A DNA stretch of 53,015 nt, taken from the IMG/VR virus record IMGVR_UViG_3300029305_011445; one strand, written 5' to 3'. This stretch comes from a virus (taxonomy: Duplodnaviria > Heunggongvirae > Uroviricota > Caudoviricetes). Positions 14,018 through 49,192 of the stretch are shown one piece after another (positions within the stretch are counted from its first letter, which is position 1; each line of letters starts with the position of its first letter). Position numbers and translations under genes: made by a program. Under the pieces are notes generated by a model, which was given only the letters and a program-made list of their open reading frames with translations, made no database searches and had not been told where the DNA came from.

Positions 14018-14038
14018 AGAAATTTATTATATTTATTA

Positions 14039-16336: not shown

Positions 16337-16361
16337 ATACTAATCTCCATTCCTTTCGTCA

Positions 16362-19266: not shown

Positions 19267-19366
19267 ATCACTTTATCTCCTTTTATTATTGTATAATATA
19301 TATAAGGTCCAAAATATTTCAAAACGAAGAAAAAAAATACACCAGATTACTGGTGTATTTTTCTGT

Positions 19367-19924: not shown

Positions 19925-19954
19925 ATTTTTATTTCCTTTCATTTTTACATAAGA

Positions 19955-25272: not shown

Positions 25273-25326
25273 AGTTTTCCCCTCTTATTACGAAACAAGA
25301 GGTTTATACAAAACCTCTTCGTTTCA

Positions 25327-26154: not shown

Positions 26155-26170
26155 TTCATCTTCTCCTTCA

Positions 26171-26353
26171 CTATTTCTTCACTATTTCTTCACTATTTTC
26201 GTATTCTGCATATACATAATCCGGATTATTTGTTACATTTTCACCAAAATAACAAAATGTTCCCAGTACGAATATGAGTAATATAAGACTTATGATCTCT
26301 GTTTTGATTTTCATAACATTACCTCTTTTTATCCTATATATTATTAGGACCAA
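26171..26353 (-). CDS. Small membrane or secreted protein
   Basis: 60 aa with a hydrophobic N-terminal segment. Confidence 0.55.
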   Translation of the reverse strand: MVLIIYRIKRGNVMKIKTEIISLILLIFVLGTFCYFGENVTNNPDYVYAEYENSEEIVKK

Positions 26354-26417
26354 TTAAATAAAATCGTAGAAAAAAAAAGAGAAACAAAACTTTTGTTTCA
26401 TTTCTCTTCTACTTTCA

Positions 26418-27101
26418 TTATTCGCTGAACATATTCTCTTCAAATAAGGAGCCGCCAGTACCATTTTCCATTTCTCGCAATACATCAGCTTCAATATTTG
26501 CTACTTCAGAGCTATTGATATCCACACTTATGAAATCAAGATTATTCGCATGAAATATCACATGCATGCAAGTATTTGTTCCAGAGTCATTAAGCGTTCT
26601 AAAATATGATACTGGAAATGCCATTTGGAACATCGCGCGACCCTCTAACGCATATGGCATAAATGCAATTGAAAATACTGGCATCTGGTTCGAAATATCT
26701 TCGTTGTTCGCGATTTCTTCCTGCATTTTACGGTATCTGTCTAGCATGTGTTTCATGTCCTGCAAGTATGCATTCTTTTCGGAATCAAAGATGAACACAG
26801 CATTGATTAATTCGCCGTCCATTGTGTACAAATCAACAGCACAGTCATTAATTTCCATGTCATCAACTTCTCGTTTATCATTTTCAGTAACATCTAATAA
26901 CGTCATACCTTCTCTGATATTTGAAATAACACTTAATTCTGCAAGAATATGACATGGACTATGACCATCTTCGTCTACAGAGTTAATAAGATATAAAATA
27001 TCATCTTGGTTAAATGTATCATATTTTTCATTATTAGTTTCGGCACTGACCGGTGCTGGAACTGGAACACTTTCATTTGTAAATAAATTTGTATCTGACA
27101 T
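26418..27101 (-). CDS. Acidic hypothetical protein
   Basis: 227-aa ORF, AAGGAG RBS. Confidence 0.8.
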   Translation of the reverse strand: MSDTNLFTNESVPVPAPVSAETNNEKYDTFNQDDILYLINSVDEDGHSPCHILAELSVISNIREGMTLLDVTENDKREVDDMEINDCAVDLYTMDGELINAVFIFDSEKNAYLQDMKHMLDRYRKMQEEIANNEDISNQMPVFSIAFMPYALEGRAMFQMAFPVSYFRTLNDSGTNTCMHVIFHANNLDFISVDINSSEVANIEADVLREMENGTGGSLFEENMFSE

Positions 27102-27236
27102 ATTTTATATTCTCCTTTATTTCTATTTACAATAAATATGGCTACAAACTTTACAAAGCAAACCGTTTTGTTTAGTTCAACTAACATACCATATTTATTA
27201 ATAGAGTAAAAAATATTTGGAAGGAGGACGGTTTCG

Positions 27237-28097
27237 ATGCAAACAATGGATAATGAACAATTATTTTTAAATCGATTGCAAATCCCGCAACCAGAGCGTA
27301 AATTGATTGAACGACTTAAAGAGCATAGTTTGTATGCATATAAACATAGTGTTGATACTGCAATGGTAACAAAGAGATTTATGGAATTTCTTAATTTTTC
27401 AAAAGAATCTATCGTACTTGGAACAATCGCAGCACTTGTTCATGATATTGGTTTATTATCTGTGCCATCAGAGATTATTAATAAACCTGGTGCGTGGACA
27501 ACTACAGAACGCAATCTTGTCAGCGAACATACAAATAATGCAATTGAATTTTTAAATAATTGCAATGAATTAGAACAATTGGCTGCTATTTCGCACCACA
27601 AGCACTATTCAGAAGAACTTGATGAATTAACACAAATTATTGCAATTTGTGCAACATATAGTGCAAACAAATCAGAACGCCCGGACCGAACTGCTGCTCC
27701 AAATATTATTGCGTTAAACGCTGTTCTTAGTGCAAAAAATCTGAATCCCGAATTTGTTTCTGATTTTAAAAATATGATTACAAAGTCTCGCGATTTAATA
27801 CAATTACAGACACCATTTATTAAATTGGATCCGACTCATTACGAACCACATGTATTACACTATATTGCGTTGAAATATCATGTTAATGAGACACAACTTT
27901 ATATCGATAACAATAATAATTATGTAGTATATGATAAGAAAGTTTTAGCGACTCTTGATAACAACGGCGTTATTGAAAATGAGCCTCACGAAATTGAATT
28001 ACTTGGAGACGGTCGTTTATTTGATAAACAGGTAGAATGGGAATCTCAAGATCGCGATTTCTTAGACATTAATGAATACGAAGAATTACTTTCATAA
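27237..28097 (+). CDS. HD-GYP-like domain protein, degenerate
   Basis: HSVDTA, ALVHDIG, EIINKPG.WT..ER, SHHKH; no GYP loop; SERPDR in place of RPYR. Confidence 0.8.
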   Translation: MQTMDNEQLFLNRLQIPQPERKLIERLKEHSLYAYKHSVDTAMVTKRFMEFLNFSKESIVLGTIAALVHDIGLLSVPSEIINKPGAWTTTERNLVSEHTNNAIEFLNNCNELEQLAAISHHKHYSEELDELTQIIAICATYSANKSERPDRTAAPNIIALNAVLSAKNLNPEFVSDFKNMITKSRDLIQLQTPFIKLDPTHYEPHVLHYIALKYHVNETQLYIDNNNNYVVYDKKVLATLDNNGVIENEPHEIELLGDGRLFDKQVEWESQDRDFLDINEYEELLS

Positions 28098-28142
28098 CAA
28101 AAAATGCTTACCAGATATTTTCTGATAAGCATTCTTTTTTTT
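28098..28142. terminator. Bidirectional terminator
   Basis: aatgcttaccaga...tctgataagcatt flanked by A and T runs. Confidence 0.75.
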
Positions 28143-28512
28143 ATATAAAATTATTACATCCCCAGTTGGTTGCACATACAGCATGTCCATATGTCAAACA
28201 TGTTCCGTCATAAAACTGTTTACAACTTTTGCATGTTTTAATATGCGGTGATATGTATCCAGTCATATAATACAAAAGATAATCTGTTACTGTAATAAAA
28301 CCATACTGCTTATAGTGATTATTGACATTATTTAAATCATCTAATGTTTGTATTTTAAAACCAACTTCTAATTCAATAAGGGTTAACAAACCCAATGTCT
28401 CATCCATTTCACCCCTAATACTGGCGGGAACCGATTCTTTGTATAATTGTGCATATGAAACCGGTATCTCTGCAACAACAATTCCGTTCTGCGTTTTAAT
28501 CTGATATAACAT
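28141..28512 (-). CDS. Hypothetical protein with Cys-rich C-terminus
   Basis: CKSCKQF..C....C....C. Confidence 0.75.
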   Translation of the reverse strand: MLYQIKTQNGIVVAEIPVSYAQLYKESVPASIRGEMDETLGLLTLIELEVGFKIQTLDDLNNVNNHYKQYGFITVTDYLLYYMTGYISPHIKTCKSCKQFYDGTCLTYGHAVCATNWGCNNFI

Positions 28513-28525
28513 TGTTTATCTTCTC

Positions 28526-29347
28526 CTATTCTGCAGCCCAACTATCACCGGTTGCATAATCAATTACGATGCCAGGTGCTACATTGTAACAATAAACATT
28601 AATGCAAACACCTTTTCCGTTATCTTCAATAGAATACGCTTCCATTAATACTCCACTTGCAACTAAATTATCATTTTCATAAATTGGTGTAACTCGATAC
28701 AACACATGATTCGATGGATTTTCTTTTACATAATTAAGAACTGTTTCCTCGATTTGCCACATGCCTTCAATATTCATATATCTTGTCCCAGTAATAAGAT
28801 TCTTTTCATTTGCATCTTCTCCGGCCAAAGAATGTGCGATTAAATGACACCTGTTGTATAACCAATCCTGATCAATTAATCCTTCATATTTTGCTTGAAT
28901 CCATCCACTTGGATAAATATCACTAATAGAACTTCGCTCTTTTGTCGGAAGAGTTTCTGTACAAATATTTGCAAATGCGACACCACAGCGACCAAGTGAA
29001 TCAAGTTCTGAATATTGTTCGAACATATCTGTTGTTATTTCATCTATTGTAAAAAACGGTACATTCCCATTTACATAAATATAAGCATCTCCGGAATATT
29101 CAGGTAACAATGATAAATCGAGACCAGTGGCTGTATCTTCTGGTTCAATAAAAGACTCTGTTGAAGATTTCTTTCCGAATTCTGTATTCAGTTCTTCAAT
29201 ATTATTAACAGTTGTAACAAATGATTCGGCTTCATCAAGAAATTCATTACTTTCCAAAGATTGCGCCGATGCAATTATCATAATTGCAAAAACTATAATG
29301 GGCGTAAGTTTTTTAAGCCATTTTTCTAATCGGGTTAATATTTCCAT
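28526..29347 (-). CDS. Secreted or membrane-anchored DNA/RNA non-specific endonuclease
   Basis: LDSLGRCGVA, YNRCHLIAHSL, NLITGTRYMN, YRVTPIY; N-terminal TM helix. Confidence 0.92.
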   Translation of the reverse strand: MEILTRLEKWLKKLTPIIVFAIMIIASAQSLESNEFLDEAESFVTTVNNIEELNTEFGKKSSTESFIEPEDTATGLDLSLLPEYSGDAYIYVNGNVPFFTIDEITTDMFEQYSELDSLGRCGVAFANICTETLPTKERSSISDIYPSGWIQAKYEGLIDQDWLYNRCHLIAHSLAGEDANEKNLITGTRYMNIEGMWQIEETVLNYVKENPSNHVLYRVTPIYENDNLVASGVLMEAYSIEDNGKGVCINVYCYNVAPGIVIDYATGDSWAAE

Positions 29348-29434
29348 ATTTAATTCTCCTTTTTCTTTTTTTTTATGAAATAAATATGGTGTTTGGTAAA
29401 TACAGAACAAAAAAGAAGGAGAAAATTCTCCTTC

Positions 29435-31174
29435 TTAGTACCAGCCAGAACCACCGCCACCAGTATATTTTGGTGAATAAACAGAACGCAATCCTGTGGG
29501 TTTTGGTTTTGTAGCAGTATTCGTTTTCTTTGTTTCGTATTTTTTCGGTTCCGTCTTTAAACGGTCAATCAAAATACCTGCCTGCTGTTTGGTTAATGTG
29601 TTAATATTGATATCTCCAATATCTCTTCCAGTTTGTGTAAATAACAATCGAATATAATCTTTTTGAGAATCTGATGCCGGTGCATTACCCCAATACGAAA
29701 CTAAACGAGCATCCCATAATGCCCTGGAATCAACTTCTTTCTGTAACAAATAATTATATACACTATCAATTACATCCTGTAATGGTGCTTTTTCAAATAT
29801 TTCTTTAATTGCTTTTGGATTGTTGAAATCAACAAATTCTGTTAAAATAGCTGTTGTTTCGCCCAATGCATCGGAACGGAAAATTGTAATTTCTCTACGA
29901 TTACCAAGACTTAAGTGTAATGAGTTATCTCCCATCGGAACGAAATTAACATCTCGTAAGTCAACATCGTTATCTTGAGAAAATAATGCAACTCGTTTGG
30001 CACCGTTAATCCAGCTGTCCGGTCCATCTAAAATGATTTCAATTTTATCTTCCATTTCAGTAATCTTAACACCTTGTAATTGCTCACGTTTTTTCTTTGG
30101 AACAATTTCCATGTTAAGACCAAATAAATGACCAACATTAATAGGTGGTTGTTTTGTAACACCGACACAATCGATTAATGTTAACGATTCTTTTCCCGGG
30201 TATGGTCTCAGTCCGCGGCCAACCATCTGCGTGTATAAGCTTTGGTTCTGTGTTGGTCGAACCATAATTACTGTTTCGATAAGCGGTATATCTGTGCCTT
30301 CTGAGAAAATCATTACCGAAACAATACATGGGAATTCCTTTTTTACAAATGATTCGATAATTTTATCTCGATTTGGAGTATCGCCAACAACAACTTTCGC
30401 TCCGGGAATTTTCTTTGCCAGTTCATAAGCATGCGCGACATTTACTGCAAAAATCATTGTCTGCCCTTTACGATATTGGTTGTATGCATCTACAACGGCG
30501 TCTACACATTCTGTCTTCATCATTGCATCTGAAAGACCGTTTATCGCATAATCACCCATCTGTTTTTTAACGCCAATAAGATTATATCCAACATCAACTT
30601 GATAACAATCAATATCGGTTAAAAATCCCTCTTTGATACCCCACTTCATATCTTTCATGTAGATAATATCATTATAGATTTTGTGAAGATCTGCCTTGTC
30701 TGCTCGATCAGGTGTTGCTGTAAATCCAATATGTATACGTGGTTTAAAATAATCGTAAATTTTCTGATATGATGGTGCTGTTGCGTGATGTGCTTCATCC
30801 GTAATAATCATATCAAATTCTTCTGGATGAAATTTATCCAGTCGACGTATCAAAGATTGTACCGACGCGGAAACAACTTCTTCCCCATTGCTATGTTCTT
30901 CCGCCTGTTCTACACCAAAACTGCAGTCATAGTATTTCTCCGGTTGATGTACCAACTCATCACGATGACTAAGAATCAAAACTCGTCCGCGACGAGGAAT
31001 GTGAGAAAACACGTAGGTTTTACCGCATCCTGTTGGTAACACTACTAAATGCGATCCTTCTTTACATGCATCAATTTTATCGATACACTCTTTCTGATAT
31101 GGTCGCAGTGTTGATTGGTCCGGGGTATGTGGCGGATCAAAATGTACTGATGTGAAATTATTTGTTTCATTCAT
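29435..31174 (-). CDS. SF2 DEAD/H helicase (ResIII/Irc3-like)
   Basis: LPTGCGKT, DEAHH, TAT, QMVGRGLR. Confidence 0.93.
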   Translation of the reverse strand: MNETNNFTSVHFDPPHTPDQSTLRPYQKECIDKIDACKEGSHLVVLPTGCGKTYVFSHIPRRGRVLILSHRDELVHQPEKYYDCSFGVEQAEEHSNGEEVVSASVQSLIRRLDKFHPEEFDMIITDEAHHATAPSYQKIYDYFKPRIHIGFTATPDRADKADLHKIYNDIIYMKDMKWGIKEGFLTDIDCYQVDVGYNLIGVKKQMGDYAINGLSDAMMKTECVDAVVDAYNQYRKGQTMIFAVNVAHAYELAKKIPGAKVVVGDTPNRDKIIESFVKKEFPCIVSVMIFSEGTDIPLIETVIMVRPTQNQSLYTQMVGRGLRPYPGKESLTLIDCVGVTKQPPINVGHLFGLNMEIVPKKKREQLQGVKITEMEDKIEIILDGPDSWINGAKRVALFSQDNDVDLRDVNFVPMGDNSLHLSLGNRREITIFRSDALGETTAILTEFVDFNNPKAIKEIFEKAPLQDVIDSVYNYLLQKEVDSRALWDARLVSYWGNAPASDSQKDYIRLLFTQTGRDIGDININTLTKQQAGILIDRLKTEPKKYETKKTNTATKPKPTGLRSVYSPKYTGGGGSGWY

Positions 31175-31238
31175 GTTTGTGTCCTCAAAACGAAAAGGAC
31201 CGGGAAATTACCCGATCCCTTCGTTTATTCTTTCCTAT

Positions 31239-32300
31239 TTACTTCCATTCATTAGTGTCGTCATCATTGTCATCTTCATTGTTTTCAAAGATGTCGATAC
31301 GCAACGTGTCTTTACGACCGCACATTGCTCTTAAGAATCCAGTAGCGTTTACAAACTCACTATCTTCCGGAATAATAATGTCCGAACCAAAAACTTCTTT
31401 GATTTCATCATCAATCATATTTACGGTTCCACCAATAAATACGAACTGAGTATAATCAACTGACCACTGAGCAGTACGACAATCATCCATAATTCCAGTT
31501 ACATAATCTGTAATGTATCGAGTAATTGCTGCCTTCGACTCAGCTTCTACTTTCTTATCCTGACGTCTCGGTTTTAAACAACGTTCATCGCCACGTTTAT
31601 TTAATAAATCAGAAATCTGGTCTTTATTAATAAACGAGAACGCAGCTGTAAGTTTCTGTGCTAATCCGGATGTAAGAGCATTTGCTCCTTTATTTGTTGT
31701 TACAGAAAATGTTGCGCTCGGCTCACCATCGTTGAAAATTGTCATGTTCACATTTAACCAACCGATATCGATTACACCAATTGTTTCCATTGGATCTACG
31801 CCATCTACAAAAATCGCACCAAGTGACTCTGGATACACATAGCGTCCTGCAAACTTAAATGTTTTTGTAACAACAGGCCCGTTTCCATCTAATTTGTAAC
31901 TAATAGTAATTTCTTCATCTGCTGGTAAGATGAAATCACGATATTTGTTTCGAAGTTCCACTTCCTGATAATCCTTAACCGGAATACCAATTGCTGCATA
32001 AACTTCATCAACCTCATTTTCGGAACATTCTTTTGCAATTGCAAATAAGGTACAAAGTTTATGTACAAAAGTTTTCTTTGAAGATGTCAACTCTGCACCA
32101 TTTGCTGCATTACGACCAACTTTATACGTTCTTCCATTCATCTGAACAAGAAATGTTGAACTACCTGGATCAGTGTCTTCAAATGTACCCTCATCGTATC
32201 TGGTTGGAAATGTCGCTTTTGTAACAGTATTTGATGTTACATCATATGTCGCCACTTTTGTATGTCCTTTACCGGAATCTACTGCAATATATCTTTTCAT
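31239..32300 (-). CDS. parM: ParM/StbA-family actin-like segregation ATPase
   Basis: AVDSGKGHTK, IGIP, YPESLGA, VIDIGWLNVN, FIGGT. Confidence 0.9.
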   Translation of the reverse strand: MKRYIAVDSGKGHTKVATYDVTSNTVTKATFPTRYDEGTFEDTDPGSSTFLVQMNGRTYKVGRNAANGAELTSSKKTFVHKLCTLFAIAKECSENEVDEVYAAIGIPVKDYQEVELRNKYRDFILPADEEITISYKLDGNGPVVTKTFKFAGRYVYPESLGAIFVDGVDPMETIGVIDIGWLNVNMTIFNDGEPSATFSVTTNKGANALTSGLAQKLTAAFSFINKDQISDLLNKRGDERCLKPRRQDKKVEAESKAAITRYITDYVTGIMDDCRTAQWSVDYTQFVFIGGTVNMIDDEIKEVFGSDIIIPEDSEFVNATGFLRAMCGRKDTLRIDIFENNEDDNDDDTNEWK

Positions 32301-32315
32301 ATGTTATTCTCCTTT

Positions 32316-32687
32316 CTACGCGTCAAGTTTATCAACAATATCGAAAAAGCTATTTTTCTTTGTTTCTTTTTGATTCTTTTTGGTTTCTAATTTTACATCA
32401 GGCAAGTTTGCTTTTGGAACCGTATTTTCTTTGTTTACAATCGGCCTTGCGGTACTATTCTTTTCAGCTGTATTTGGGATTGTTGCTGAAAGACTTGGTT
32501 GCTGCAAACTCTGTTCACAACTAGGTTTTGATACAGTATATGGAATCATAGATGTTGCAAACCCATTTTGGATTTCCTGCATTGCTTGTCCTCTGATTTG
32601 CAAGTATTCCTGCATTGTAGGCGCTCGTCCCGTTAATTGTCTGTACTCTTCTACAAGTTCTCTTGCAAGTTCTGTGATTGAGTTCAT
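32316..32687 (-). CDS. Candidate ParR-like adaptor
   Basis: Small helical N-terminus plus disordered linker, immediately upstream of parM. Confidence 0.45.
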   Translation of the reverse strand: MNSITELARELVEEYRQLTGRAPTMQEYLQIRGQAMQEIQNGFATSMIPYTVSKPSCEQSLQQPSLSATIPNTAEKNSTARPIVNKENTVPKANLPDVKLETKKNQKETKKNSFFDIVDKLDA

Positions 32688-33082
32688 ACGTTTGGCTCCT
32701 TTTTCTTTCTTTTTGCCTTATGAATATTTGCATATTTTGAAATTGCATAACATTCTGCATTAACAATTTTTCCATTTGGCAACGATAACTCTTTTGTTTT
32801 CGGAGATGCAATTGTGTAAATGATTTCTCCTTTAAACAATTTCATTTCTAATACTGGTCCATTAATTACCAAATAAGAATTCCTACCGTCAACAATTGCG
32901 ATTGTAATGGATTCTAAAACATTTTTATTTATTGAATAACGTCTGGATTTGATTTCAATCTCTTCAGAATCTAAACGCAAAAGTACTGCTGAATTATCAG
33001 TTACTTGTTCTTTATTTTTTAAACAAAATGTAGCAATACAATACGTTTCCGGTGCCTCTTTTTTCTTTCTCAAACTATTCAC
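32684..33082 (-). CDS. Hypothetical protein
   Basis: 132 aa; 4-bp overlap with the next gene. Confidence 0.75.
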   Translation of the reverse strand: MNSLRKKKEAPETYCIATFCLKNKEQVTDNSAVLLRLDSEEIEIKSRRYSINKNVLESITIAIVDGRNSYLVINGPVLEMKLFKGEIIYTIASPKTKELSLPNGKIVNAECYAISKYANIHKAKRKKKEPNV

Positions 33083-33147
33083 CTCTTTGCTTTATGTTTT
33101 TTGTTCTTGTCTATTATTAGGACCAAAAATACATAAAACGAAGCAAA

Positions 33148-33531
33148 TTATATTAATCGAATTGCATACCAGAAAAAAGCGATTGTGATTGTGATAAATA
33201 TCGGTGTAATAATATGATAGGTTCTGTGACCTAAATGTTCATTTTTTGAACCATCTTTATTAAACATATTTGTGATACTTGATTCATTTTTCTTTTGAAG
33301 TCTCATTCGCATCAAGATAGTAAGGATCCACAGCCCACATACCGCCAAAATAATTGCAAATATCCATTGATTTTCTTGCACAATTTTTATAATATTAAAC
33401 AAAAATTGTGCTGGATTGTTTTCAGCTATTAAAGTTTCTCCGGCATTAACGGTTTCTTCAATAACGTTTGTAACAGAGTCTATTGAATCTGCTAATAAAA
33501 TATTGTCATAATTTACTAATGCTTGTTTCAT
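33148..33531 (-). CDS. Membrane protein
   Basis: Two TM segments; AGGAG RBS before ATG at 33531. Confidence 0.75.
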   Translation of the reverse strand: MKQALVNYDNILLADSIDSVTNVIEETVNAGETLIAENNPAQFLFNIIKIVQENQWIFAIILAVCGLWILTILMRMRLQKKNESSITNMFNKDGSKNEHLGHRTYHIITPIFITITIAFFWYAIRLI

Positions 33532-33593
33532 AAAATTTCTCCTAAAAAGAGAGTCACTAAACACTTATAATGATAATGACTCTCTTGTATTAA

Positions 33594-34877
33594 TTATTCT
33601 TCACCAGATGAAATAGTTTTAGGTTCTTGTTTCTCAAACCCTCGTTCCATATAACATTCTGGACATTCAATAAAATGCGGTCCCGGTGATAAAAATGTAA
33701 CATCCTCATTCCACTCATGTGCACAAAATGCACATCCCATATGAATCACTTGATGTACAACACTTTTATGGAACTCTTTTGTCGCAATATCAAGTTCATA
33801 TAGTCTTCTGTAAAGTTCTGTTGAATTATCAGATGAAATTTCTAAATACGCAGGACACCACTGTACCTTAAATTGATTTGAAGACAATTCGTCTTGCATT
33901 CGATTCTTAATAATACTCCATTGTGAATTACATGTTTTTTCAATGAAATCGATTGTATCTTTGTACTGCTTGCGAATCACTTCTAATAATTCACGATTCT
34001 TTTTGTCTTCATCAGCAGATAACGTTGTTTTCACAATAAAATCTGAATCCTGTTTTTTCGAAACAGGAGCAGGTACAGGGTTTTGATTTTGTTCTTCAAC
34101 AGCTTTTTCTGTTTCATTTTTATGCTGTTGCGTTTCTGCTTTCTTTTCGCTTTCAGCTTGAACTTTATGTTGTTCCGAATTTATTGTTGGTTCATTGATT
34201 TTTGTATCCGACATAATGATGTGCTTAGTATCTTCTTTTATAATTTCCGGTTCCATTTTCTCTGGTTCAGAAACAATTGATTCCGTAATTGTAGGCTCGT
34301 TTTTGATAGAGCCTTTGTTCAACCATGCAAAATCAACTTCGATACGACAAACATTATCATCGAATTCCTCATAATGAGCCATTAACACATTGTTTACAGT
34401 CTGTTCCAATGATGTTTCTTTAATTGAAGCTTCTAATGCTGCTGCGATGCCAAAATCATATAACATATCTTGTGTCAACTCTTTAAAATCCAATGTGTTT
34501 ATAAATTCAGAAAAATCGAATCTATCGTTTTTGCTGATACCAGTAATATCAAACTCGTTTTTGTCTTTTGCATCACACTCTTTAAAGAAATAAAGACTAC
34601 CAATGTTTCGTTCTAAATCTTTATCATTATTCAATAAATAAACCTGCGGAGATGTTCTGTCTGTCTTATCACGACACACAACATCGCTTAGCATCATTCC
34701 GGCATCTGCAAAGAATTTTGCTTCTTGTGCAGCACACAGTTCGATATCTTCATCGGTTCCAATAAGAACAATATTTTGAACTAAGCCACGGCCACCACGT
34801 AATGTATAAACTTTGTTAAATGTGGCCAATTTTGGACATGCGTCCTGACACCAATCTGCACGAATCATTTCTTGCAT
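33594..34877 (-). CDS. Hypothetical protein with C-terminal Zn finger
   Basis: 427 aa; CAFC...CPEC; acidic low-complexity middle. Confidence 0.8.
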   Translation of the reverse strand: MQEMIRADWCQDACPKLATFNKVYTLRGGRGLVQNIVLIGTDEDIELCAAQEAKFFADAGMMLSDVVCRDKTDRTSPQVYLLNNDKDLERNIGSLYFFKECDAKDKNEFDITGISKNDRFDFSEFINTLDFKELTQDMLYDFGIAAALEASIKETSLEQTVNNVLMAHYEEFDDNVCRIEVDFAWLNKGSIKNEPTITESIVSEPEKMEPEIIKEDTKHIIMSDTKINEPTINSEQHKVQAESEKKAETQQHKNETEKAVEEQNQNPVPAPVSKKQDSDFIVKTTLSADEDKKNRELLEVIRKQYKDTIDFIEKTCNSQWSIIKNRMQDELSSNQFKVQWCPAYLEISSDNSTELYRRLYELDIATKEFHKSVVHQVIHMGCAFCAHEWNEDVTFLSPGPHFIECPECYMERGFEKQEPKTISSGEE

Positions 34878-37733: not shown

Positions 37734-38118
37734 ATTTTTTTCCTCTCTTTAAAAGGCCGTAATAATTCCTTCCTCATAAATATGGAAATAGAATTTGCAA
37801 AGCAAAACCATTTGTCTCATTTTTAGAATTTTAAGCAAAGATGTGAATAATATAAATGGGACGTTTGAAATGTTTAGCTGTGACAACATTACTTGCCGCA
37901 AATATTCCTGTTTAAATAATATGGTGTGCATTTGTTTAGAAAAGCAAACACAAACCACATCCTACGCACTAAAGTGCGGTTGGATAAGGATGAAATTATC
38001 GCGACGGGTTAATAGTGTCACGAGAGTTGCAATACGCAACTATAATTTATTAGGACCATTCTTATTAAAACGAAGAAAAAAAACACCTGATGAAAATTCA
38101 TCAAGTGTTTTTTTTCTT

Positions 38119-39465
38119 TTACGCACTAAATTCGACCAAATATTCAATGGTTGCCTGACACTGTTGATATACAATTACCTCATCATTACGCAATCGCATA
38201 CCATTGTCACCATTGTTACGTTCTGCCCATAAGCAGTCGCAATCCGGATGATCTCTGTGAAAATCCTCCCAATGATGTGGTGATTTACACATACCACCGT
38301 CTCTGTAAATATAATATGGATTTCCTGTTGCAACTTTGAAAATTGCAAGATAGGCTTTGTTATCAGACCCTTGTGCCCAATAAGAACCTCGTGACGAAGT
38401 ATATCCTATTGATTTACCAGCACTAGGTGCAAAATAAATGCCATATCCAAACATTTTACCACAAATACGAACATCTGCTTTTACGAGCTCCGGATTCAAA
38501 TATAAACCGTTTAAGAAAATACTCCACCAATTTGGTGTGCCGGAACCATGCCAAAGTTTTGTAATACCACCATTTTCTTCAGTAAGATTCCGTGATTTAC
38601 AATATTTGTTAAAAGCATCTTCTGTTTGATGATTTTTACATTTCCATGCTCGCAAATATCTTGCGCGATTATTTGTCATCAAATCTTTGATAAAGTTCTC
38701 TTCATCTTTTGTGACATCTCGCATTTCAAGATTGTTTGCTTCCAGAATTGTTTTGTTAGCATCAACAGCACCTGTGGTTCGAAGCATTGAACACAAGAAA
38801 TCTAACAATTCCTGTTCCGCTTGAATTTTGTTCGTGAAATCGCTTTGTTTTTTAACGATTTCATTTTTCATCTGGCGAATTGGACGAGGAATAATTGTCC
38901 ACAAATCCATCAGTAATTTGTTAAATTCAGATACAGATAAAGAATCTTTTTCTGTATTTAACTTATTGATAAGTTCTTGTGCAGCGGTTAAATCCTTTTC
39001 CGGGATTGTATCGATTTTAACAGAATACTGTTCGCTAAGGACTTCATTTGCGGCAGCTAATAACTCTTTTAAAATGTCACGAACTGAAACGTTCTCGATT
39101 TCACGATATTCACCTGACTTCTTAATTTCTTTGGCATCAAGTTTTTCTGTAGAAACGACATTCCATTTCGAACAAATCTTGCGGCTTACATACTCGCACC
39201 ATTCTGTTATTGGTAACCTTCTACAAGTCTGTTTGTTTGGGCCAAACTTAACCTGCGTTTTGCCACTTTTTACGGTGAAGAAAAGCCCGTCCGCAGAAAC
39301 TTCCAATTCTTCCTGCTCGTTTTTACCGATATTTGTGCCAAAATTCATTGCCACTTTACGAAGTAAAAGGTACTTCGTTTTTGTCGGATCAAAAATTGGA
39401 TCCATTGCCATATCATCTACGATATCTGCAGTGTCCATGTTGTTCATTGATAATTCACTTGCCAT
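38119..39465 (-). CDS. PARP-type ADP-ribosyltransferase (regulatory plus catalytic domains)
   Basis: LWHGS, GKMFGYGIYFA..A.KS..Y, LRNDEVIVY (H-Y-E triad); LWTIIP regulatory-domain motif. Confidence 0.92.
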   Translation of the reverse strand: MASELSMNNMDTADIVDDMAMDPIFDPTKTKYLLLRKVAMNFGTNIGKNEQEELEVSADGLFFTVKSGKTQVKFGPNKQTCRRLPITEWCEYVSRKICSKWNVVSTEKLDAKEIKKSGEYREIENVSVRDILKELLAAANEVLSEQYSVKIDTIPEKDLTAAQELINKLNTEKDSLSVSEFNKLLMDLWTIIPRPIRQMKNEIVKKQSDFTNKIQAEQELLDFLCSMLRTTGAVDANKTILEANNLEMRDVTKDEENFIKDLMTNNRARYLRAWKCKNHQTEDAFNKYCKSRNLTEENGGITKLWHGSGTPNWWSIFLNGLYLNPELVKADVRICGKMFGYGIYFAPSAGKSIGYTSSRGSYWAQGSDNKAYLAIFKVATGNPYYIYRDGGMCKSPHHWEDFHRDHPDCDCLWAERNNGDNGMRLRNDEVIVYQQCQATIEYLVEFSA

Positions 39466-39545
39466 ATTTGTTCTCCTTCTTTTTATTTATCTATATAAAC
39501 AACAAAAAGGAGACTATTAATGTCTCCTTTTTGTTGATGATTATG

Positions 39546-40040
39546 TTACAGAATAAATATGGTATGTAGAAGATCCTCAATAAATCCACCAACCAACAAT
39601 TCTGTATTTATATTACATTTTCTATCAGAACCATACACATTGTGAATCAAAAACACTTCTGTTTCTAATCGATCTTCGCCAGGGCTTCTTTGAAGATTAA
39701 TTGTTAGAAACAATGGTTCTGTTGTATACCAATAAGGTGGCTTACCGAATTCATATACATGTTTTCTGATTAACTCAATTGTTTCTTTTTCTTCCGTGTC
39801 TTTAAGATATTGAATTAAATCATCTTTTGTTTCAAATGTAAATAGTTTCAATGCATTCATTGGAGGAAGAAAGTCGTTAAACTGTATTGTTATATCTAAC
39901 AAATAATATAATCCGTGACTGTACAGTAAAATTTCTTTATGTATATCAATATAACGTATGCCAAGCAGTTTAATTTTGTAACAATAATCATTTTGGAACA
40001 TTGGATGGTTCCAAACATCTGTTGTCTCACTTAATATCAT
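39546..40040 (-). CDS. Hypothetical protein
   Basis: 164 aa, GGAGG RBS. Confidence 0.75.
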   Translation of the reverse strand: MILSETTDVWNHPMFQNDYCYKIKLLGIRYIDIHKEILLYSHGLYYLLDITIQFNDFLPPMNALKLFTFETKDDLIQYLKDTEEKETIELIRKHVYEFGKPPYWYTTEPLFLTINLQRSPGEDRLETEVFLIHNVYGSDRKCNINTELLVGGFIEDLLHTIFIL

Positions 40041-40958: not shown

Positions 40959-42116
40959 CTATCCTGCCAACAATTGGTATCCGTAAATATCCCAGGCTAA
41001 AGTTCGAACCATTGCTCCAATACTGTGGATTCGTTCTCCTTTTTTTACATATAACTCGTACAATCTACAAACAGCTGATACAATAACTGTTTCCGGTAGC
41101 TGCAATGCAATTTTGGATATATCATTTAAGTCTTGTAATTTAACCTGCAACAATGGATCCTGCTTCTTCTGCTTTTTATTCGTTTTTGAAATACTATCGT
41201 TTAAGGTTTTAATAGCATCTGTTATCGTATCTCTGCAATGATCACATATTTCAGATTTAAGTCGTACCGGATTAAATCTATCTTTCATGGTTAAATAAAA
41301 GAAACGATTTCCTTTTGACAATTTAACTCCAAACATAGTTCCAAACTCAGGAGTTGTAATAATTTGTATAATCTGTTTTTTTGTTACATAATCTGGCAGC
41401 ATACGTTTTGTATCTGCAAAAGAGGTTTCGTTTAAAAACTGATTATTTTGTAATCCATCCAATGTGGATACAATTCCTCGTAACTGAAGTCGCAATACAT
41501 TAATGGTTTTGCAATTAATTAAAGTTTTTAACATATCAAATGACAACACAAAATATCCGCGACCACCTTCTGATGCGGATTTTTGATTATCTTTTATAGA
41601 CAATATAAATACTTGATATGTTCCTGGATACAACCCTTTCCCGTAAGAGATATATCCTCGCTTTGATAATGTTTCAAGGTTACGAGTAACACTCTTTTTT
41701 GAACATGATAACTGCTCTGCAGCCTCTGTTACTTCAATACGTGCGTATCCATACTTATCTACACGTAAAAAATGTAAATACAAGAATAATTTGATTGCAA
41801 GAGTATTTAGTTTCTGTCTTGTTCCGAAATGATTTCTTTCATTCACATAAATACGTTGCGTTAAAACTTGGAACCTTTTTTGACCACAGGAACGAGTACA
41901 ATTTTCGCCTCGATTGTAATACGGACAAGCATAACAATTACTTGCATCCACATCAACAATATTTGTTTTTTGTGTCTGTATCTTATAATGATTCGGCTGA
42001 TTTTTAATAGCGTTGATTATTGCAGCAGTATTGATGAGCGCAGTTTTAGGATATTCCATATGAAAATAGAATTGCTCCATATTTGGTTCTTGGATTTGTT
42101 CTTTTGTGCCAATCAT
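40959..42116 (-). CDS. Winged-HTH protein, putative replication initiator
   Basis: EAAEQLSCSKKSVTRNLETLSKRGYI HTH; CYACP...C...C cluster; DnaD-like C-terminus. Confidence 0.65.
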   Translation of the reverse strand: MIGTKEQIQEPNMEQFYFHMEYPKTALINTAAIINAIKNQPNHYKIQTQKTNIVDVDASNCYACPYYNRGENCTRSCGQKRFQVLTQRIYVNERNHFGTRQKLNTLAIKLFLYLHFLRVDKYGYARIEVTEAAEQLSCSKKSVTRNLETLSKRGYISYGKGLYPGTYQVFILSIKDNQKSASEGGRGYFVLSFDMLKTLINCKTINVLRLQLRGIVSTLDGLQNNQFLNETSFADTKRMLPDYVTKKQIIQIITTPEFGTMFGVKLSKGNRFFYLTMKDRFNPVRLKSEICDHCRDTITDAIKTLNDSISKTNKKQKKQDPLLQVKLQDLNDISKIALQLPETVIVSAVCRLYELYVKKGERIHSIGAMVRTLAWDIYGYQLLAG

Positions 42117-42234
42117 AATAACTGCCTCCTTTCTTTTACTGCAAATAATACAATGTATAACTTTAAACTCATCATAACAGTTTTAAAAGGTTTGTAAAGG
42201 CATACGAAAAACACCTTTTCGAAGTAAAACAATT

Positions 42235-42760
42235 TATATCGAAAGGGATTGAACCATCTTTATTGACTGTCGAAAAGTTTGCGATCACGTAATTTGTTGT
42301 ACGAAGATGTTACGGCTACAAATTGTTTTTGCGAATTATTATTCCGCAAATCGAAAAATAACGTAACAGATAAAATATTGTCGAACATGTATACATTGTT
42401 TTGAAAGGGCGTCGAAAAAATGAATGCTGAACTGATTGTATTTCGAATGTTTGTGTACCTAAATTTACTTTAATCGAAAATTTGATATCATATCGTAATT
42501 ACGTCGAAGGAATATGCACTATTTGAGAATTTGGCGAAAAATATGAAACTAATTTACAATGCATCGAAAAAAAATAGAACCATATTATGCTGTATCGAAA
42601 AAATGCACACTACATTATGATACGTCGAAAAAAACATGCACCATATTATATATTTCGAAGAAAGTTGAACCATAATTAAATATTTCGAAGAAAATGGTAC
42701 TATTTTACATTACGTCGAAGGAAATTGTGCCATATTACTACTGTGTCGAAATATTTAATA
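42235..42760. repeat. Degenerate tandem array, 30-31-bp period (candidate iterons)
   Basis: CGAA at 42240, 42271, 42302, 42332, then 42352, 42382, 42413, 42444, 42475, 42505, 42535, 42565, 42596, 42626, 42656, 42686, 42716, 42747. Confidence 0.85.
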
Positions 42761-42866
42761 CCAAATCAAATAATATAGGTAATGGTCGAACAAAAATTGG
42801 TCTATGACTGTCGGGTTGTACTTTCTCCTGCTTTCGTTTATAATAGTTCTAAATTGGAGGTAGGCT

Positions 42867-44354
42867 ATGAGCTCTATTAAGTATTCAAAAAGCTTTATAA
42901 ATAAAATCACAGCAACATTGGATTCAGATTTGATTGAATTCTATAATAATAAACAGCTAAAGTTAAAGCCGTTTAATGAGCCGTTAGAAACAGTTGTTGA
43001 ACGTGTTTTTATTGAAGAACTAGATAATACTGCAGATCGTGCAGAACTTCGCAAAATCGTATCTGCTAAGAAACGAAATTTATCAAGAAAAAAAGCCCGG
43101 TGCTATAAATCTTGTGCTGCAATGGTTGATACGGAAGAGTGGAAAAATGAAAGCGAATGTTATTTTTACCGTGACGCTCTTACAGTATTTCAAATGACAG
43201 GCCAATTGGTAGCAAATGGTATTAAATATAAAAGTTTCCCAGAAATGGAACGTGAACAACTTGCACGTATCAAACAGTGGGCTGAAAGTGATGAAACCCG
43301 AATGATGGATTATCCGGGACAGGAGAAAAAGACACCAAAAACCATATTCTCAAATTTTATGCTTGATTTAACTTTAAACGTATTACAAATTATTGGAAAA
43401 GAATATGATTACGACATCACAAGTGCAACATATGCGGTTGTTGATGATTTGAGCAATCAGGCATTGTTCGCAAATACCAGAGAGGCAATTAAAAAGGAAG
43501 ACTTAAAAGATGGTAGTTTAGAGATTTATCGTAGTGAAGACGGGAAGCACAAAACAGTTTTAACATTTCCGCCGGATCTATTTGATAAAAAGGGCTATGT
43601 AACTTTATTTGATGATAAAGATATGAGGATACTATCGTATCTGATTCAAAAATGGGATGAGAATCGTAGTGTTGTTAGGCCATTACCAATTCGTGTCATA
43701 GATATTTGTCACTATCTTTCCGGCAATGCAAAGTCAAACCCAAGTTCATATCAATACAATGACATCTGGCATCGTATTTATAAAATGTATGCATTGGGTT
43801 TTGAATCTTATAACAACGAGAATGTTACAGGTGGTAAACGTTTGATTGCGGAATGTACTTATGATGATACGAATAAGATTATTTATTACGTTATTAGTGA
43901 ATTTTTATATGAAGAATTCACTAACAATAAGATTCGTAAGATGCCGGCAGAACAATTAAATCAATTAGAAGATAAAACAGCGCGTATTCTTTATTATCCA
44001 TTCATGAAACAGCGTGTATCAGCATACGAAACGGCAATAGAGAATAACATGACGGTTGATTGTTATCCAATGTATTTCCAATATGAGCATTTTCTTCGTT
44101 GGGTTAACTTTGGTAACGGAAATCAAAAAGATAACCACACTGCTATTATTGACGCCTTAGAAGATTTTAAAGAAAAAGGTATTTTTATTCGGACGTACAA
44201 GCATCTGCCACGTAAACGTATGTACTATGTCGAATTCTTTGTATTATCTGACATTGAAATCCAGGATCTTGATTTTTACTTCAACAAGAGCGATCAAGAA
44301 GACGCGGAAGAAGTAATTGAACAATTAAGCATTTTTACTCCATTATTAGATTAA
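42867..44354 (+). CDS. Putative plasmid-type replication initiator (Rep_3/RepA-like C-terminal half)
   Basis: DMRILSYLI...VIDICHYL...YNDIWHRIYKM...KTARILY pattern; adjacent to the repeat array. Confidence 0.55.
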   Translation: MSSIKYSKSFINKITATLDSDLIEFYNNKQLKLKPFNEPLETVVERVFIEELDNTADRAELRKIVSAKKRNLSRKKARCYKSCAAMVDTEEWKNESECYFYRDALTVFQMTGQLVANGIKYKSFPEMEREQLARIKQWAESDETRMMDYPGQEKKTPKTIFSNFMLDLTLNVLQIIGKEYDYDITSATYAVVDDLSNQALFANTREAIKKEDLKDGSLEIYRSEDGKHKTVLTFPPDLFDKKGYVTLFDDKDMRILSYLIQKWDENRSVVRPLPIRVIDICHYLSGNAKSNPSSYQYNDIWHRIYKMYALGFESYNNENVTGGKRLIAECTYDDTNKIIYYVISEFLYEEFTNNKIRKMPAEQLNQLEDKTARILYYPFMKQRVSAYETAIENNMTVDCYPMYFQYEHFLRWVNFGNGNQKDNHTAIIDALEDFKEKGIFIRTYKHLPRKRMYYVEFFVLSDIEIQDLDFYFNKSDQEDAEEVIEQLSIFTPLLD

Positions 44355-44481: not shown

Positions 44482-44834
44482 CGGTAGTTATTATCTGTTA
44501 GTTTTTTATCTAACACTCTGGAACTTTCGTTCATTTTCATCGATTGGTCAATTCCAATCCAGCCTAGCATAGCTTTTTACCAATATATGATAATCATATA
44601 TACTGAATGGTAAAGCAGTCTCGTGGAAGCATTATATTCTGCAACTAATTACAGGTTCAGCTTCTATGCGTTGCCCCTGACTATCTTTTTACAATAGCCT
44701 TCGGTTCGGATTAGGATAGCCACACCCTTCCCGTTTAATACTGCTTTAATTATTCTAAACAGATACTTCAGCAATCTGCTTAAAACGGCATTATAGAATA
44801 TTTGGCTAAAATATATCATATTCTATACTTATTT
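44482..44834 (-). ncRNA. Group I intron without ORF (353 nt), nrdD intron 2
   Basis: Exon ends GGT (U), intron ends G; removal gives in-frame RRTCGYIG|SQYW; GATTGCTGAA, GGGGCAACGCATAG and AAGCTATGCTAG core-like segments. Confidence 0.85.
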
Positions 44835-46493
44835 ACCAATATATCCGCACGTACGACGCGCAACACTCATCGTTTCCTGATGTCTATTGCCACAATTCGG
44901 GCACTCCCATACCAGTTTCTTATGTTCGTCTTCTACGATTTTGATTTCTCCATCGTAACCACATTCCATGCAGTAATCAGACTTTGTATTAAGTTCAGCA
45001 TACATAATATTATTATAAATATACTGAATTACCGAAATTACAGCAGGAATATTGTCCTGCATATTCGGAACTTCTACGTAACTGATTGCACCACCTGGTG
45101 ATAATGCCTGAAATTCTGATTCAAATTTCAGTTTTGTAAAAGCATCAATTTCTTCAAAAACTGGAACATGATAACTGTTTGTGATAAAGTTTCGATCTGT
45201 TACACCTTCAATCTTTCCAAAACGTTTCTGTAAACATTTTGCAAATTTGTATGTTGTTGATTCCAATGGTGTTCCGTATAAACTGTAGTCAATATTTTCT
45301 GCAGCTTTCCATTCTGCACACGCATCATTTAAACGCTGCATAACTTTCAATGCAAAAGGTTTACCGGTTTCATCTGTATGTGATACGCCTTTCATGTATT
45401 TCACACATTCGTATAAACCTGCAAATCCAAGTGAAATTGTTGAATATCCATCATACAGCAATTTATCAATGGTTTCGCCCTTCTCTAAGCGTGCTAATGC
45501 ACCATGCTGCCAAAGAATTGGCGCTACATCAGATTTTGTACCAAGTAATCTTTCGTGACGACGTCTTAATGCTCTATGGCATAATTCCAGACGTTCTTCT
45601 AAAATACGCCAGAATTCTGTCTCATCTTTATATGATGAACATGCTACGTCAACAAGATTAATTGTAACAACACCCTGATTAAATCTTCCGTAGTATTTGC
45701 TAGAGCCTTCAACATAATTCAATGCTTTCGCAAGATTTTCTGTTGTTCTGTCTACGGTTAAGAAAGAACGGCATCCCATACACGGATAACACTGACCGGC
45801 ACCAGTTTTATCAACTTTAAGCTGATTCATCATCTTTTCAGAAATATAATCTGGTACCATTCTCTTTGCGGTACAACGAGCTGCTAATTCTGTTAACCAG
45901 AAATATTCACTACCAGATTCAATATTGTCTTCTTCTAAAACGTACAACAACTTCGGGAATGCTGGTGTTACATATACACCCTTTTCATTCTTTGTTCCGA
46001 GGATTCTCTGGTGTAATACTTCTTCGATGATCATTGCTAAGTCGTCTCGCAACTGTCCTTCCGGTACCTCATTCAGATACATAAATACTGAAACAAATGG
46101 AGCTTGCCCGTTTGTTGTCATAAGGGTATTTACCTGATAATGGATTAACTGAACACCACTCTTAACTTCTTTCACAACACGCTTCTCGGCAATTTTGTTT
46201 ATCTTTTCATCTGTTGCATCAATGCCAGCTTCTGCAAGCTCTTCACGAACCTGTTTACGATATTTCTGTCGACTGATATCAACAAATGGTGCAAGATGAG
46301 ACAATGTAATTGTCTGACCGCCATATTGTGAACTAGCAATCTGCGCCACAGCCTGTGTCGCGATATTACATGCTGTCAAAAAACTCTTTGGCGGATCAAT
46401 CATGGTTCCGGAAATTACTGTTCCGTTCTGGAGCATGTCTTCAAGGTTAACTAAGCAGCAATTGTGCATATGCTGCGCGAAGTAATCTGCATC
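44835..46493 (-). CDS. nrdD: Anaerobic ribonucleotide reductase, exon 2
   Basis: DADYF..HNCCL, YGGQT, MGCRSFL, GRFNQGVVTINL, TPLEST, Zn site CMECG/CPNCG, RRTCGYIG. Confidence 0.97.
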
Positions 46494-47467
46494 CAACGCA
46501 TTTTTGTACAAAATGCGCCTGACTATATCATAATCTGTGATTCTGTTACCAAAACACAGATTCCAGGCACTTCCAAATAGAGAATTTCACTCTAAATGTA
46601 CTCTACTTACTTTACCATGTAACGTCTTTCTCGTTAACGGTCGCTTTCGATAGTCGATTGACCTTTTTCTTTTATATCTTTTACATGTATCCCATATTGT
46701 TCAAAATAATTATTTTTTTCACCCATTACTGCTTTTCTAATTAAAGCATCAGTATAAGACTGTGACAAATTTAACAATAATGATAAATCTGATCTGGAAT
46801 AATTGTTTCCGTTTTTATCATAGATATCATATCTGAATCGTCCATTATTTTTCCATTTTGATAAATTCAGCATTTTATTAATTTCTGAAAAATGTTTTGC
46901 AGTTCTTTTTCGAAAATCTGGATTTTGCCATCGTTTGGAATTTGATTCAGAAATATTGTTAAGATTATTGATACGAGCATGGTAGTTATTGTAATAATGT
47001 GTACACCATTCAAGATTTGAATAGTGATTATTAAGTTTATTACCATCTTTATGATTTACGACTAATTCTTTGTAATTTGATGGAACATCTAAAAACAAAA
47101 AGGCAACTAGCCGATTCGCTCTAAATGCTTGCAACTTGTTATTAATTGATAGTCGATAAACCAAATATCCGTATTTTGTTACTTCGCCTTTTAAGAATTT
47201 ATTACTTTTTGTAGAAAATACTCTTCCATCTTCGTATGCTAAATATGAGAAGAATTCTTTGTAATGCAATGTATCAACCCCTTTCATGAAGGGATATATA
47301 TACGATATAAAAGAAACTTGGCACAGGATTGATAAATCTTTCCCTGTTAGCACATTACCAAACTGCCATTTCCTGCAGTTCCGTATTTACGTGTAATGTA
47401 CACCGTAGATTTCTACGTTCACCTGGTTTTTCACTGTATATCACTACACAGTGCCACAATGTTATTT
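46494..47467 (-). mobile_element. Group I intron (974 nt) with HNH homing endonuclease, nrdD intron 1
   Basis: Removal gives GLIHFH|DADYF; 5' exon U and terminal G; R-like GTCAATCGACTA and S-like ATGATATAGTC. Confidence 0.92.
46634..47269 (-). CDS. HNH homing endonuclease
   Basis: RANRLVAFLF, VVNHKDGNKLNNHYSNLEWCT; probable TTG start after AGGGG. Confidence 0.92.
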   Translation of the reverse strand: MHYKEFFSYLAYEDGRVFSTKSNKFLKGEVTKYGYLVYRLSINNKLQAFRANRLVAFLFLDVPSNYKELVVNHKDGNKLNNHYSNLEWCTHYYNNYHARINNLNNISESNSKRWQNPDFRKRTAKHFSEINKMLNLSKWKNNGRFRYDIYDKNGNNYSRSDLSLLLNLSQSYTDALIRKAVMGEKNNYFEQYGIHVKDIKEKGQSTIESDR

Positions 47468-47956
47468 ATGGAAATGGATAAGACCCTTTTCATGTGCATC
47501 AACGATATCCTGATCCAATAAGAATCGTTTCGTAATATCTTTGCTTACTTCACCAGCCATGTAATCACGCTGTGTACTGTTAATCACCGGGTTCTTGTTT
47601 GAATTTTCCTGTTTCACCTCTTCATTGTTACATTCAATTAAGCTCATAATCTGCTCATCTGTTGAGTTTGATTTACGAACTAAAGCTCTCTTGTAACGAT
47701 AAGTGATGTAAGCCTTTGCAAGTTCATATGCATTCTGAGCAACAATCTGTTTCTCAACCATATCCTGAACTTCCTCTACGCTTACAGCTCGCTCCAAACG
47801 AGTGATTGTTTTTTCAACATCTGCAACAATTTCTTTGATTGTTTCAGCCGAGAGCTGATCAGCTTTTGACACTTCGTTATTTGCTGCTTCGATTGCCTTT
47901 CTGATTTTTTCATTGTTGAACTCTACCTGAGTCCCATTTCTTTTGATGATATACAT
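47468..47956 (-). CDS. nrdD: Anaerobic ribonucleotide reductase, exon 1 (ATP cone)
   Basis: MYIIKRNG..VEF..EKI..AI ATP cone; ENSNKN, TQRDYMAGEVSK, IHFH. Confidence 0.95.
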
Positions 47957-48002
47957 TTTTAATGTACCTCCCTTTCTTTTTGTAATTATTTGATACAGAA
48001 AT

Positions 48003-48030
48003 AAATATGGTATGCGACAATAATTAAACA
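48003..48030 (-). promoter_or_regulatory. Class B promoter motif upstream of nrdD (one of about 20 copies)
   Basis: TTTGTTT-N-ATACCATATTTATT. Confidence 0.6.
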
Positions 48031-48072
48031 AAATAAAAGAGTCAGCATTTCTACTGACTCACATATAGCTAT

Positions 48073-48709: not shown

Positions 48710-49192
48710 TTAAACCTGATCCGATCTGTTCTTGATTATGATATCATCCGCATAAAACATAACAATCTGCGTTGATGTCCTATCATTTTCTTCTTTGCAA
48801 TTCATCATAATTAATGAATCATATCGCGGACTATGCGAGGGATTGAAGCCGCAGGCGCTAAATCCTGCATCTTGTACATAATCTGCAAGAACCCCTGCAG
48901 TCAATCCTTCCTGTTTAAAATATTCCAGTTCCGATTCATCACCTGCAGCGGCAAATTCGATGCATTTCTGTTGTAATTCTTCGTCATCTAAGAAAAATCC
49001 GCCCCAAGATTGCCCATGTAAATCAACAATTAATGGATTCTTCATATACAATTCACAATCATAGATCCGCTCAATATCGTTACCAAATGCTTTTGCAAAG
49101 AATTGCGCCGTTACAAAGTCATCAGTGAAATACGCAGGACAGTTAAATTTTTCGAACAAAAATGTTGTCCCATGATAAGCTCGTGTCATCAT
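48710..49192 (-). CDS. Stand-alone ADP-ribosyltransferase-like protein (ART-PolyVal-like)
   Basis: AYHGT..F..F..PAYFTDD...A..F, IYDCELYMKNPL, YDSLI, TQIVMF. Confidence 0.7.
   Translation of the reverse strand: MMTRAYHGTTFLFEKFNCPAYFTDDFVTAQFFAKAFGNDIERIYDCELYMKNPLIVDLHGQSWGGFFLDDEELQQKCIEFAAAGDESELEYFKQEGLTAGVLADYVQDAGFSACGFNPSHSPRYDSLIMMNCKEENDRTSTQIVMFYADDIIIKNRSDQV

Follow-up and report, generated by a model that had tools for sequence, protein, structure and literature searches.

What switches on a eukaryote-like PARP that is encoded on a stretch of DNA filed as viral, and what does the enzyme do for the element that carries it? The stretch (the window, 53,015 nt of IMG/VR record IMGVR_UViG_3300029305_011445) had been read initially as encoding a DNA-activated PARP that, with a second ART and a cluster for rebuilding NAD, would act as a single programme in host takeover or counter-defence. 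The gene and its domains are laid out as follows.

38119-39465, minus strand: PARP gene, 448 amino acids; acidic tail at residues 1-25, WGR-derived region at about 26-105, helical domain at 126-243, ART at 246-447
39151-39390, minus strand: remodelled WGR-like domain, residues 26-105, pI 9.5; N49 kept, S67 and K69 at the Trp and Arg positions
38737-39090, minus strand: helical (autoinhibitory-type) domain, residues 126-243; N182 and P193 invariant, D222 conserved
38122-38730, minus strand: ART catalytic domain with H306, Y344 and E429; D-loop longer by 4 residues

The open reading frame is exact at these coordinates, with an ATG start, a Shine-Dalgarno site and a terminator-like hairpin past the stop codon. 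Two antisense frames (38828-39520 and 37795-38232) had no family match and were taken as shadows. Among Pfam families, only PF00644 matched the 448-aa protein, at residues 272-447 (E = 1e-16, 61.5 bits against a cut-off of 26.7), with no match to WGR or to PARP_reg, the latter being usually missing in Clade 1 bacterial PARPs. The H-Y-E triad is invariant among 119 aligned homologues and aligns with the HGS, GIYFA and NEYIVY motifs of PARP1, E429 falling on the glutamate of NEYIVY; M338, K351, S352 and Y355 are further matches, to the PARP1 segment GYMFGKGIYFA..KSANY. PARP1 fragments were the top PDB sequence matches (phmmer), in an alignment that begins at query residue 151 and covers the helical domain and the ART, and a profile built from 50 close relatives recovered PARP1 at E = 5e-23. 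The AF2 model (pLDDT 87, pTM 0.80) shows a beta-sheet at residues 32-105, helices at 126-243 and the ART at 246-447, and its top Foldseek matches were human PARP1 WGR-HD-ART chains (E = 6e-20, TM 0.59-0.64). Judged by sequence and predicted fold, the protein is a genuine three-domain PARP homologue, PARP1/2/3-like and a member of the bacterial PARP family, and the initial assignments of a full triad and of a helical regulatory domain hold up.

The N-terminal domain tells a different story. We built a tree of 178 non-redundant PARPs from residues 120-447 alone. It placed the query in a 54-leaf clade with a long stem (support 1.0), the members of which carry an insert in this domain, and within it in a 31-leaf subclade (support 0.996) that carries the four-residue D-loop extension. 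PARPs outside the clade nearly always have N-x-K-[FY]-Y plus [YWF]-G-R here; the query reads N49-E-Q-E and S67-G-K69. Position 67 (Ser in the query) is aromatic in 0 of 31 subclade members versus 112 of 124 PARPs outside the clade, position 52 is aromatic in 0 of 31 versus 117 of 124, and position 69 (Lys in the query) is Arg in 2 of 31 versus 122 of 124. N49, which corresponds to PARP1 N567, the WGR Asn in contact with the helical domain, is retained. The clade insert adds five residues after the motif, such that F63 to W89 spans 27 residues versus 22, and comprises K73-F74-G75-P76-N77-K78 in the query. Lys or Arg is conserved at positions 73 and 78 of the clade insert, and in the subclade G75, F63 and W89 are each present in 31 of 31 members and K/R78 in 30 of 31. 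Intermediate members of the clade retain G-R (17 of 23) and so bridge the alignment register; a continuous alignment through them to members with a Pfam WGR match supports descent from WGR, one of the comparisons being partly circular. The isolated N-terminal domain gave Z scores of 4.9-5.4 to PARP WGR domains (overall 4.9-6.8), with CYTH-fold proteins tied (VIA), and its model gave no Foldseek match at E<=0.001. The WGR-like region described initially was thus right as to its beta strands and ancestry but not as to its signature. Within the subclade, the sensor hairpin is more conserved (0.44) than the helical domain (0.36), which argues for remodelling into a rebuilt binding surface rather than decay.

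PARP1, PARP2 and PARP3 depend on each of three WGR residues, Trp, Arg and Asn, for their DNA-dependent activity (PMC4081085). The query retains the Asn and has lost the Trp and Arg, as has its subclade, and on this sequence test it falls outside the canonical DNA-break-activated kind; activation by DNA, as first proposed, is doubtful in the canonical sense. The WGR-like domain is basic, so nucleic acid probably stays the most likely activator. Literature searches, which reached few subscription papers, turned up no description of a plasmid PARP clade with a degenerate WGR.

The claim that an H-Y-E PARP can make poly(ADP-ribose) needs a similar qualification: the triad is intact, but H-Y-E is not sufficient for polymer synthesis because PARP3 and PARP4 carry it and are mono-ARTs, perhaps on account of their D-loop (PMC9189837). 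In the subclade, the acceptor loops are altered and the D-loop is extended. M338 and K351 of the query correspond to PARP1 M890 and K903; the M890-like position is Ala in 26 of 31 subclade members and Met in the query. Ala at this position and the altered acceptor loops could mean mono-ART activity. Weighing these features, a polymer seems a somewhat likelier product than single ADP-ribose. The PARP itself is probably active.

Comparison with described PARPs sets the query apart in the same places. Catalogues of bacterial PARPs date from 2014 and 2018 (28 and then 72 sequences, including Butyrivibrio proteoclasticus and four viruses; PMC4245714, PMC5966428). In vitro synthesis of PAR with activated DNA has been demonstrated for two bacterial PARPs only (PMC5966428), HaPARP (Herpetosiphon aurantiacus) and CdPARP (Clostridioides difficile CD160). 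Both have the three-domain plan and the triad of the query; compared through the family pattern rather than sequence to sequence, their family conserves [YWF]-G-R and the query does not. Human PARP1, PARP2 and PARP3 (WGR-HD-ART), the best PDB matches, also share the triad, the HD and the N567 equivalent, but identity is about 16% in structure alignments, and the query lacks zinc fingers and BRCT, has replaced the W589 and R591 equivalents and bears an acidic rather than basic N-terminal tail. The PARPs of phages (Cellulophaga phi4:1 and phi17:2, XacN1, Klebsiella 05F01) and of 'NAD-jumbo phages' are, like the query, mobile-element PARPs, but all those sampled keep N-x-K-[FY]-Y and [YW]-G-R. 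The PARP of Butyrivibrio proteoclasticus pCY360 (NC_014389.1, BPR_RS17450; 'Clade 1.2 Clostridiales', PMC5966428) resembles the query in its WGR-type, helical and H-Y-E ART domains and in its setting, a Lachnospiraceae megaplasmid, which also bears a PARG. The two are 27.5% identical: the pCY360 protein lies outside the derived clade and keeps G-R, whereas the query is without the W and R and has the basic insert and the longer D-loop.

To ask what kind of element carries the gene, we considered two regions of the window.

40959-44354, no strand assigned to the region: wHTH protein, 30-bp repeat array (42564-42694) and Rep-like initiator (42867-44354, plus strand); GC skew flips here
23074-34877, minus strand: backbone common to related PARP loci, comprising RecD2, an exonuclease, an SF2 helicase, ParM and a 427-aa ORF

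Host takeover in infection presumes a phage, and the evidence points to a plasmid-like replicon instead. The initiator is Rep3/RPA/TrfA-like and lies with its 30-bp array 3 kb from the PARP gene; both features by which we recognized plasmids, a Rep initiator with repeats and a ParM partition ATPase, are present. Capsid, terminase, portal and tail genes were found neither among about 50 window ORFs scanned nor in the next 10 kb. With RecD2 and the 40 tRNA genes that are arrayed at 1979-14018, all on the minus strand, these features suggest a plasmid, and by its gene content the element looks like a Clostridia megaplasmid-like replicon, not a phage. The window also encodes a dUTPase and NrdD (44829-48031); past profile position 47 the latter is interrupted by a gene for an HNH_3 endonuclease, which would fit an intron that encodes a homing endonuclease.

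JGI and ENA contigs, the longest of 158 kb, carry the identical protein, and gut metagenome contigs, the longest of 181 kb, carry its closest relatives (42-50% identity); more distant members occur in Lachnospiraceae MAGs. Together they look like a family of megaplasmid-like elements in Clostridia. A single-sequence search of IMG/VR with the query found nothing, and no member of the close clade was found among IMG/VR contigs above 39% identity. One group of relatives has the 427-aa ORF, ParM, helicase, exonuclease and RecD2 in common with the window, and other clade loci adjoin TopoIII, DnaE, HNH, UvrD, MobV or VirB11-like genes. Immediate neighbours vary, none standing out as a conserved partner, and this neighbourhood of DNA enzymes may reflect only their large share of the backbone.

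PARPs had been called rare in prokaryotes and phages, which is correct for isolates (5 of 401 Lachnospiraceae-family genomes, 20 of 72,556 plasmids and 16 of 50,697 phage records) but not for gut metagenomes, where they are common. Searches yielded 476 relatives of the query, 232 IMG/VR stretches and 162 matches in GTDB, and a canonical relative matched 4,147 metagenomic clusters at E<=1e-50. Nineteen of the 20 PARP plasmids in PLSDB are at least 359 kb and typed as non-mobilizable, among them pCY360, BTB_502p, pSC2, pMPPla107 and Vibrio and Variovorax megaplasmids. Megaplasmids may thus be the home of many 'bacterial' PARPs, and the survey indicates that genes with that annotation are often carried by megaplasmids and large phages.

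The query is not the only PARP of its element. A second PF00644 gene, of 409 aa, lies on the same 135.9-kb contig (JGI 3300031555), about 24 kb from the first and 10.8 kb past the end of the window (window-equivalent end 63856), two genes from an SPFH/band-7 gene; its length suggests the canonical type. In a second lineage (L194-L201), a subclade PARP and a canonical PARP form a tandem pair, each preceded by the promoter motif described below; the canonical frame seems shortened in some copies. Elements with two PARPs within a few kilobases include L194 (9902-13205) and L200 (10001-13205), as well as L149, L227, L469/L472 and L015. Coexistence in two lineages suggests duplication and division of labour. 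Pairing is not universal, as the MAGs of three intermediate clade members hold a single PARP each. A PARG gene shares a replicon or contig with a PARP in L178, G051:C6, G053:C79 and pCY360; in L178, PARG and YAcAr genes (17737-19027) sit beside NrdD, 6.4 kb from the subclade PARP. The window itself has no PARG, nor have 33 IMG/VR PARP phage records. The presence of PARG beside clostridial PARPs and its absence from phage records fit reversible signalling in a persistent replicon.

Three short features flank the gene.

39554-39562, minus strand: element-wide promoter-like motif CCATATTTA, 88 nt before the PARP ATG
39500-39536, minus strand: 15-bp terminator-like hairpin between CCATATTTA and the RBS, a possible attenuator
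38073-38118, minus strand: terminator-like hairpin directly after the PARP stop codon

The motif occurs 26 times in the window (1.1 expected), mostly 30-60 nt before gene starts, including those of PncB, NadD, the ART operon, NrdD and dUTPase; a scan for sigma-70 promoters gave only chance-level ones. The copy at the PARP gene lies within the last codons of a 164-aa upstream ORF. Because PARP, the NAD genes and the ART operon have the motif in common, they are probably one regulon, but a general one, as about 20 other genes share it. Relatives carry it too, at a distance of about 50 nt from many clade PARP genes; it lies upstream of those in L174, L178, L180, L194, L200, L202, L203, L205, L084 and L480. 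The order of motif then hairpin and the 88-nt spacing are found in the window alone, the relatives having the terminator first and the motif second; a hairpin between motif and RBS means that PARP expression may be low. A second promoter-like motif, CT[TA]CGTTTT-N(9-11)-TGG[TAC]CCT[AT]AT, has 12 copies on the minus strand between 2389 and 38058 and precedes a different set of genes, suggesting two expression classes.

The account we favour, with slightly less than an even chance of being correct, is that the gene encodes an active, re-tuned PARP paralogue of a gut-Clostridia plasmid-like element, serving the upkeep of the element's own DNA. By sequence and model, the protein has its H-Y-E ART behind a PARP1-type helical domain; such an enzyme is expected to bind NAD+ and cleave it, but to stay inhibited in the absence of an allosteric signal. 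At the sensor, N49 is kept, the Trp/Arg are lost together with the two aromatic residues that follow the Asn, and a conserved basic insert has been gained at the same hairpin. The domain would still bind nucleic acid, of a kind other than the 5'-phosphorylated break read by a canonical WGR. The likeliest ligand may be an intermediate of replication, recombination or transfer of the element, such as ssDNA, a fork, a gap or a protein-blocked end. The enzyme would then, rather more probably than otherwise, make polymer, mainly on itself and on the DNA-handling proteins of the element, and an element-borne PARG would reverse the ADP-ribose mark. In two lineages it coexists with a second PARP, as expected if the copies divided the labour after duplication. 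The NAD cluster would be cargo in its own right that shares the element-wide promoter, and as a side effect it may compensate for NAD consumption.

An ordinary DNA-break-activated PARP, the substitutions of which are compensated and which acts like HaPARP and CdPARP in the repair of element or host DNA, is an unlikely alternative. In its favour, N49, the HD and the triad are kept, and the WGR-like domain is basic. Compensation would come from the insert, through an aromatic-Gly-basic motif located seven residues downstream; many clade members do read F/Y-G-R/K in the insert, and the intermediates keep G-R. However, the insert of the query reads F-G-P, and single mutants of W, R or N each abolish DNA activation in PARP1-3 (PMC4081085). 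Conservation of the WGR positions exceeds 90% across the remaining prokaryotic PARPs sampled, and here they are lost together; redundancy is also unlikely given that the element has a second PARP.

Anti-phage or anti-competitor defence, in which the rebuilt sensor would detect a foreign nucleic acid or protein and NAD+ drain or target modification would abort infection, is improbable in our estimate. NAD-depleting defence is common (PMC13464706), divergence of the sensor while catalysis is conserved would fit it, and the possible attenuator suits a toxic product. Against this, PADLOC gave no credible match for the PARP gene or nine neighbours (two weak partial matches were taken as chance), the context is a backbone rather than a defence island, and most relatives have the element-wide promoter.

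Less probable still is the initial reading, a single programme of PARP, second ART and NAD salvage that serves host takeover or counter-defence. Its two further components are both in the window.

15602-20527, minus strand: NAD salvage cluster NadD, PncA, PncB, NadE, 17.6 kb from PARP
48710-49192, minus strand: 160-aa ART-PolyVal/AcrIF11-like probable mono-ART; below the Pfam cut-off, Atlas score 0.93

The cluster is real and of Preiss-Handler type (PncA, PncB with NAPRTase_N, NadD, NadE), and the ART domain initially noted at 48710 is probable, although it scores below the Pfam cut-off. All three parts share one element and the CCATATTTA motif, and PncA and PncB would recycle the nicotinamide that ARTs release. 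The NARP anti-defence pathways consist of Adps and Namat (NARP1), NAMPT and NMNAT (NARP2) or NadR and PnuC (NARP3) (PMC13464706), and the NAD genes of the window, taken alone, fit none of these gene sets. A radical SAM gene (16362-17252) sits between pncB and nadE, and the 40 nt upstream of it are 95% identical to the stretch before nrdD (47974-48013).

Co-occurrence of PARP and NAD genes, which the programme predicts, was mostly negative. A NAPRTase-family gene is present in 8 of 28 PARP-carrying near-complete IMG/VR genomes versus 16 of 34 controls (Fisher p 0.19, odds ratio 0.45), the genomes not being independent and the controls being NrdD-selected near-complete genomes without PARP. Among 30 near-complete phages with a PncB 76-79% identical to that of the window, one has a PARP; there is no sign of PARP-NAD coupling among near-complete gut phages. 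Genes in large gut phages match the window PncB at 76-82% identity, so the cluster moves as its own module. NAD salvage genes are absent from pCY360, unlike the element of the query, which has a NAPRTase-family gene, and from 280-, 218- and 84-kb clostridial PARP contigs. None of 28 clade loci has an NAD gene or a homologue of the 160-aa ART, co-occurrence within the 31-member subclade being judged from 10-kb flanks only. The ART lies 9.2 kb from PARP; none of 260 PARP loci has a homologue of it nearby, and a search with it against four genomes and pCY360, run without a positive control, gave no match. Plasmids and named phages look more favourable: a NAPRTase-family gene occurs in 7 of 11 PARP plasmid lineages (all of other taxa) and in 5 of 6 named PARP phages, compared with PncB-like genes in 88 of 72,556 PLSDB plasmid records, but the plasmid enrichment is confounded by lineage and by size (19 of 20 records at least 359 kb), with no size-matched control. 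The integrated programme is in this sense unsupported. Residence of PARP and NAD salvage genes on one genome is also not new, having been described in 2024 for gut jumbo phages, where NAD synthesis was proposed to feed PARP and repair (PMC11662467).

Some neighbouring observations concern the same families. On pCY360, a DUF3990 gene (L279:13520-14023) lies two genes before PARP, and DUF3990 came near the 160-aa ART in the Atlas structure search. Selenomonas plasmid pSRC1 (L306) has pncA-pncB-nadE with NUDIX and sirtuin genes and no PARP, its PncB being 69% identical to that of the window. A PncB in MAG G051 was rejected as PARP-linked, since its context is chromosomal and not on the PARP contig.

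Least probable of the readings is an uncoupled or decaying paralogue with a dead sensor and a constitutive, mono-ADP-ribosylating or silent enzyme, which would suit the loss of essential WGR residues, the hairpin in the leader and a clade-wide identity below that of canonical relatives, but not the full-length H-Y-E frames in 52 of 54 clade members (the other two being cut contigs), the invariance of G75, W89, N182 and P193 or the conserved upstream promoter motif.

Neither the presence of an H-Y-E PARP as such nor that of NAD genes on the same element is new. The lineage offers a natural experiment on PARP activation, in which catalysis and the helical switch are conserved and the DNA-sensing residues are swapped for another conserved motif; as canonical and derived PARPs lie side by side on single elements, a direct comparison is possible. 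A bolder extension, conceivable but rather improbable, is a plasmid PARP lineage, widespread in gut Clostridia, with its allosteric switch rewired to a non-break activator, which together with a canonical paralogue and PARG would make up dedicated, reversible ADP-ribose signalling for the maintenance or transfer of giant elements. We know of no bacterial PARP with an established biological role. If the bolder extension is true, this would be the first WGR-HD-ART PARP to be switched on without the W-G-R residues, and the first physiological role for a bacterial PARP.
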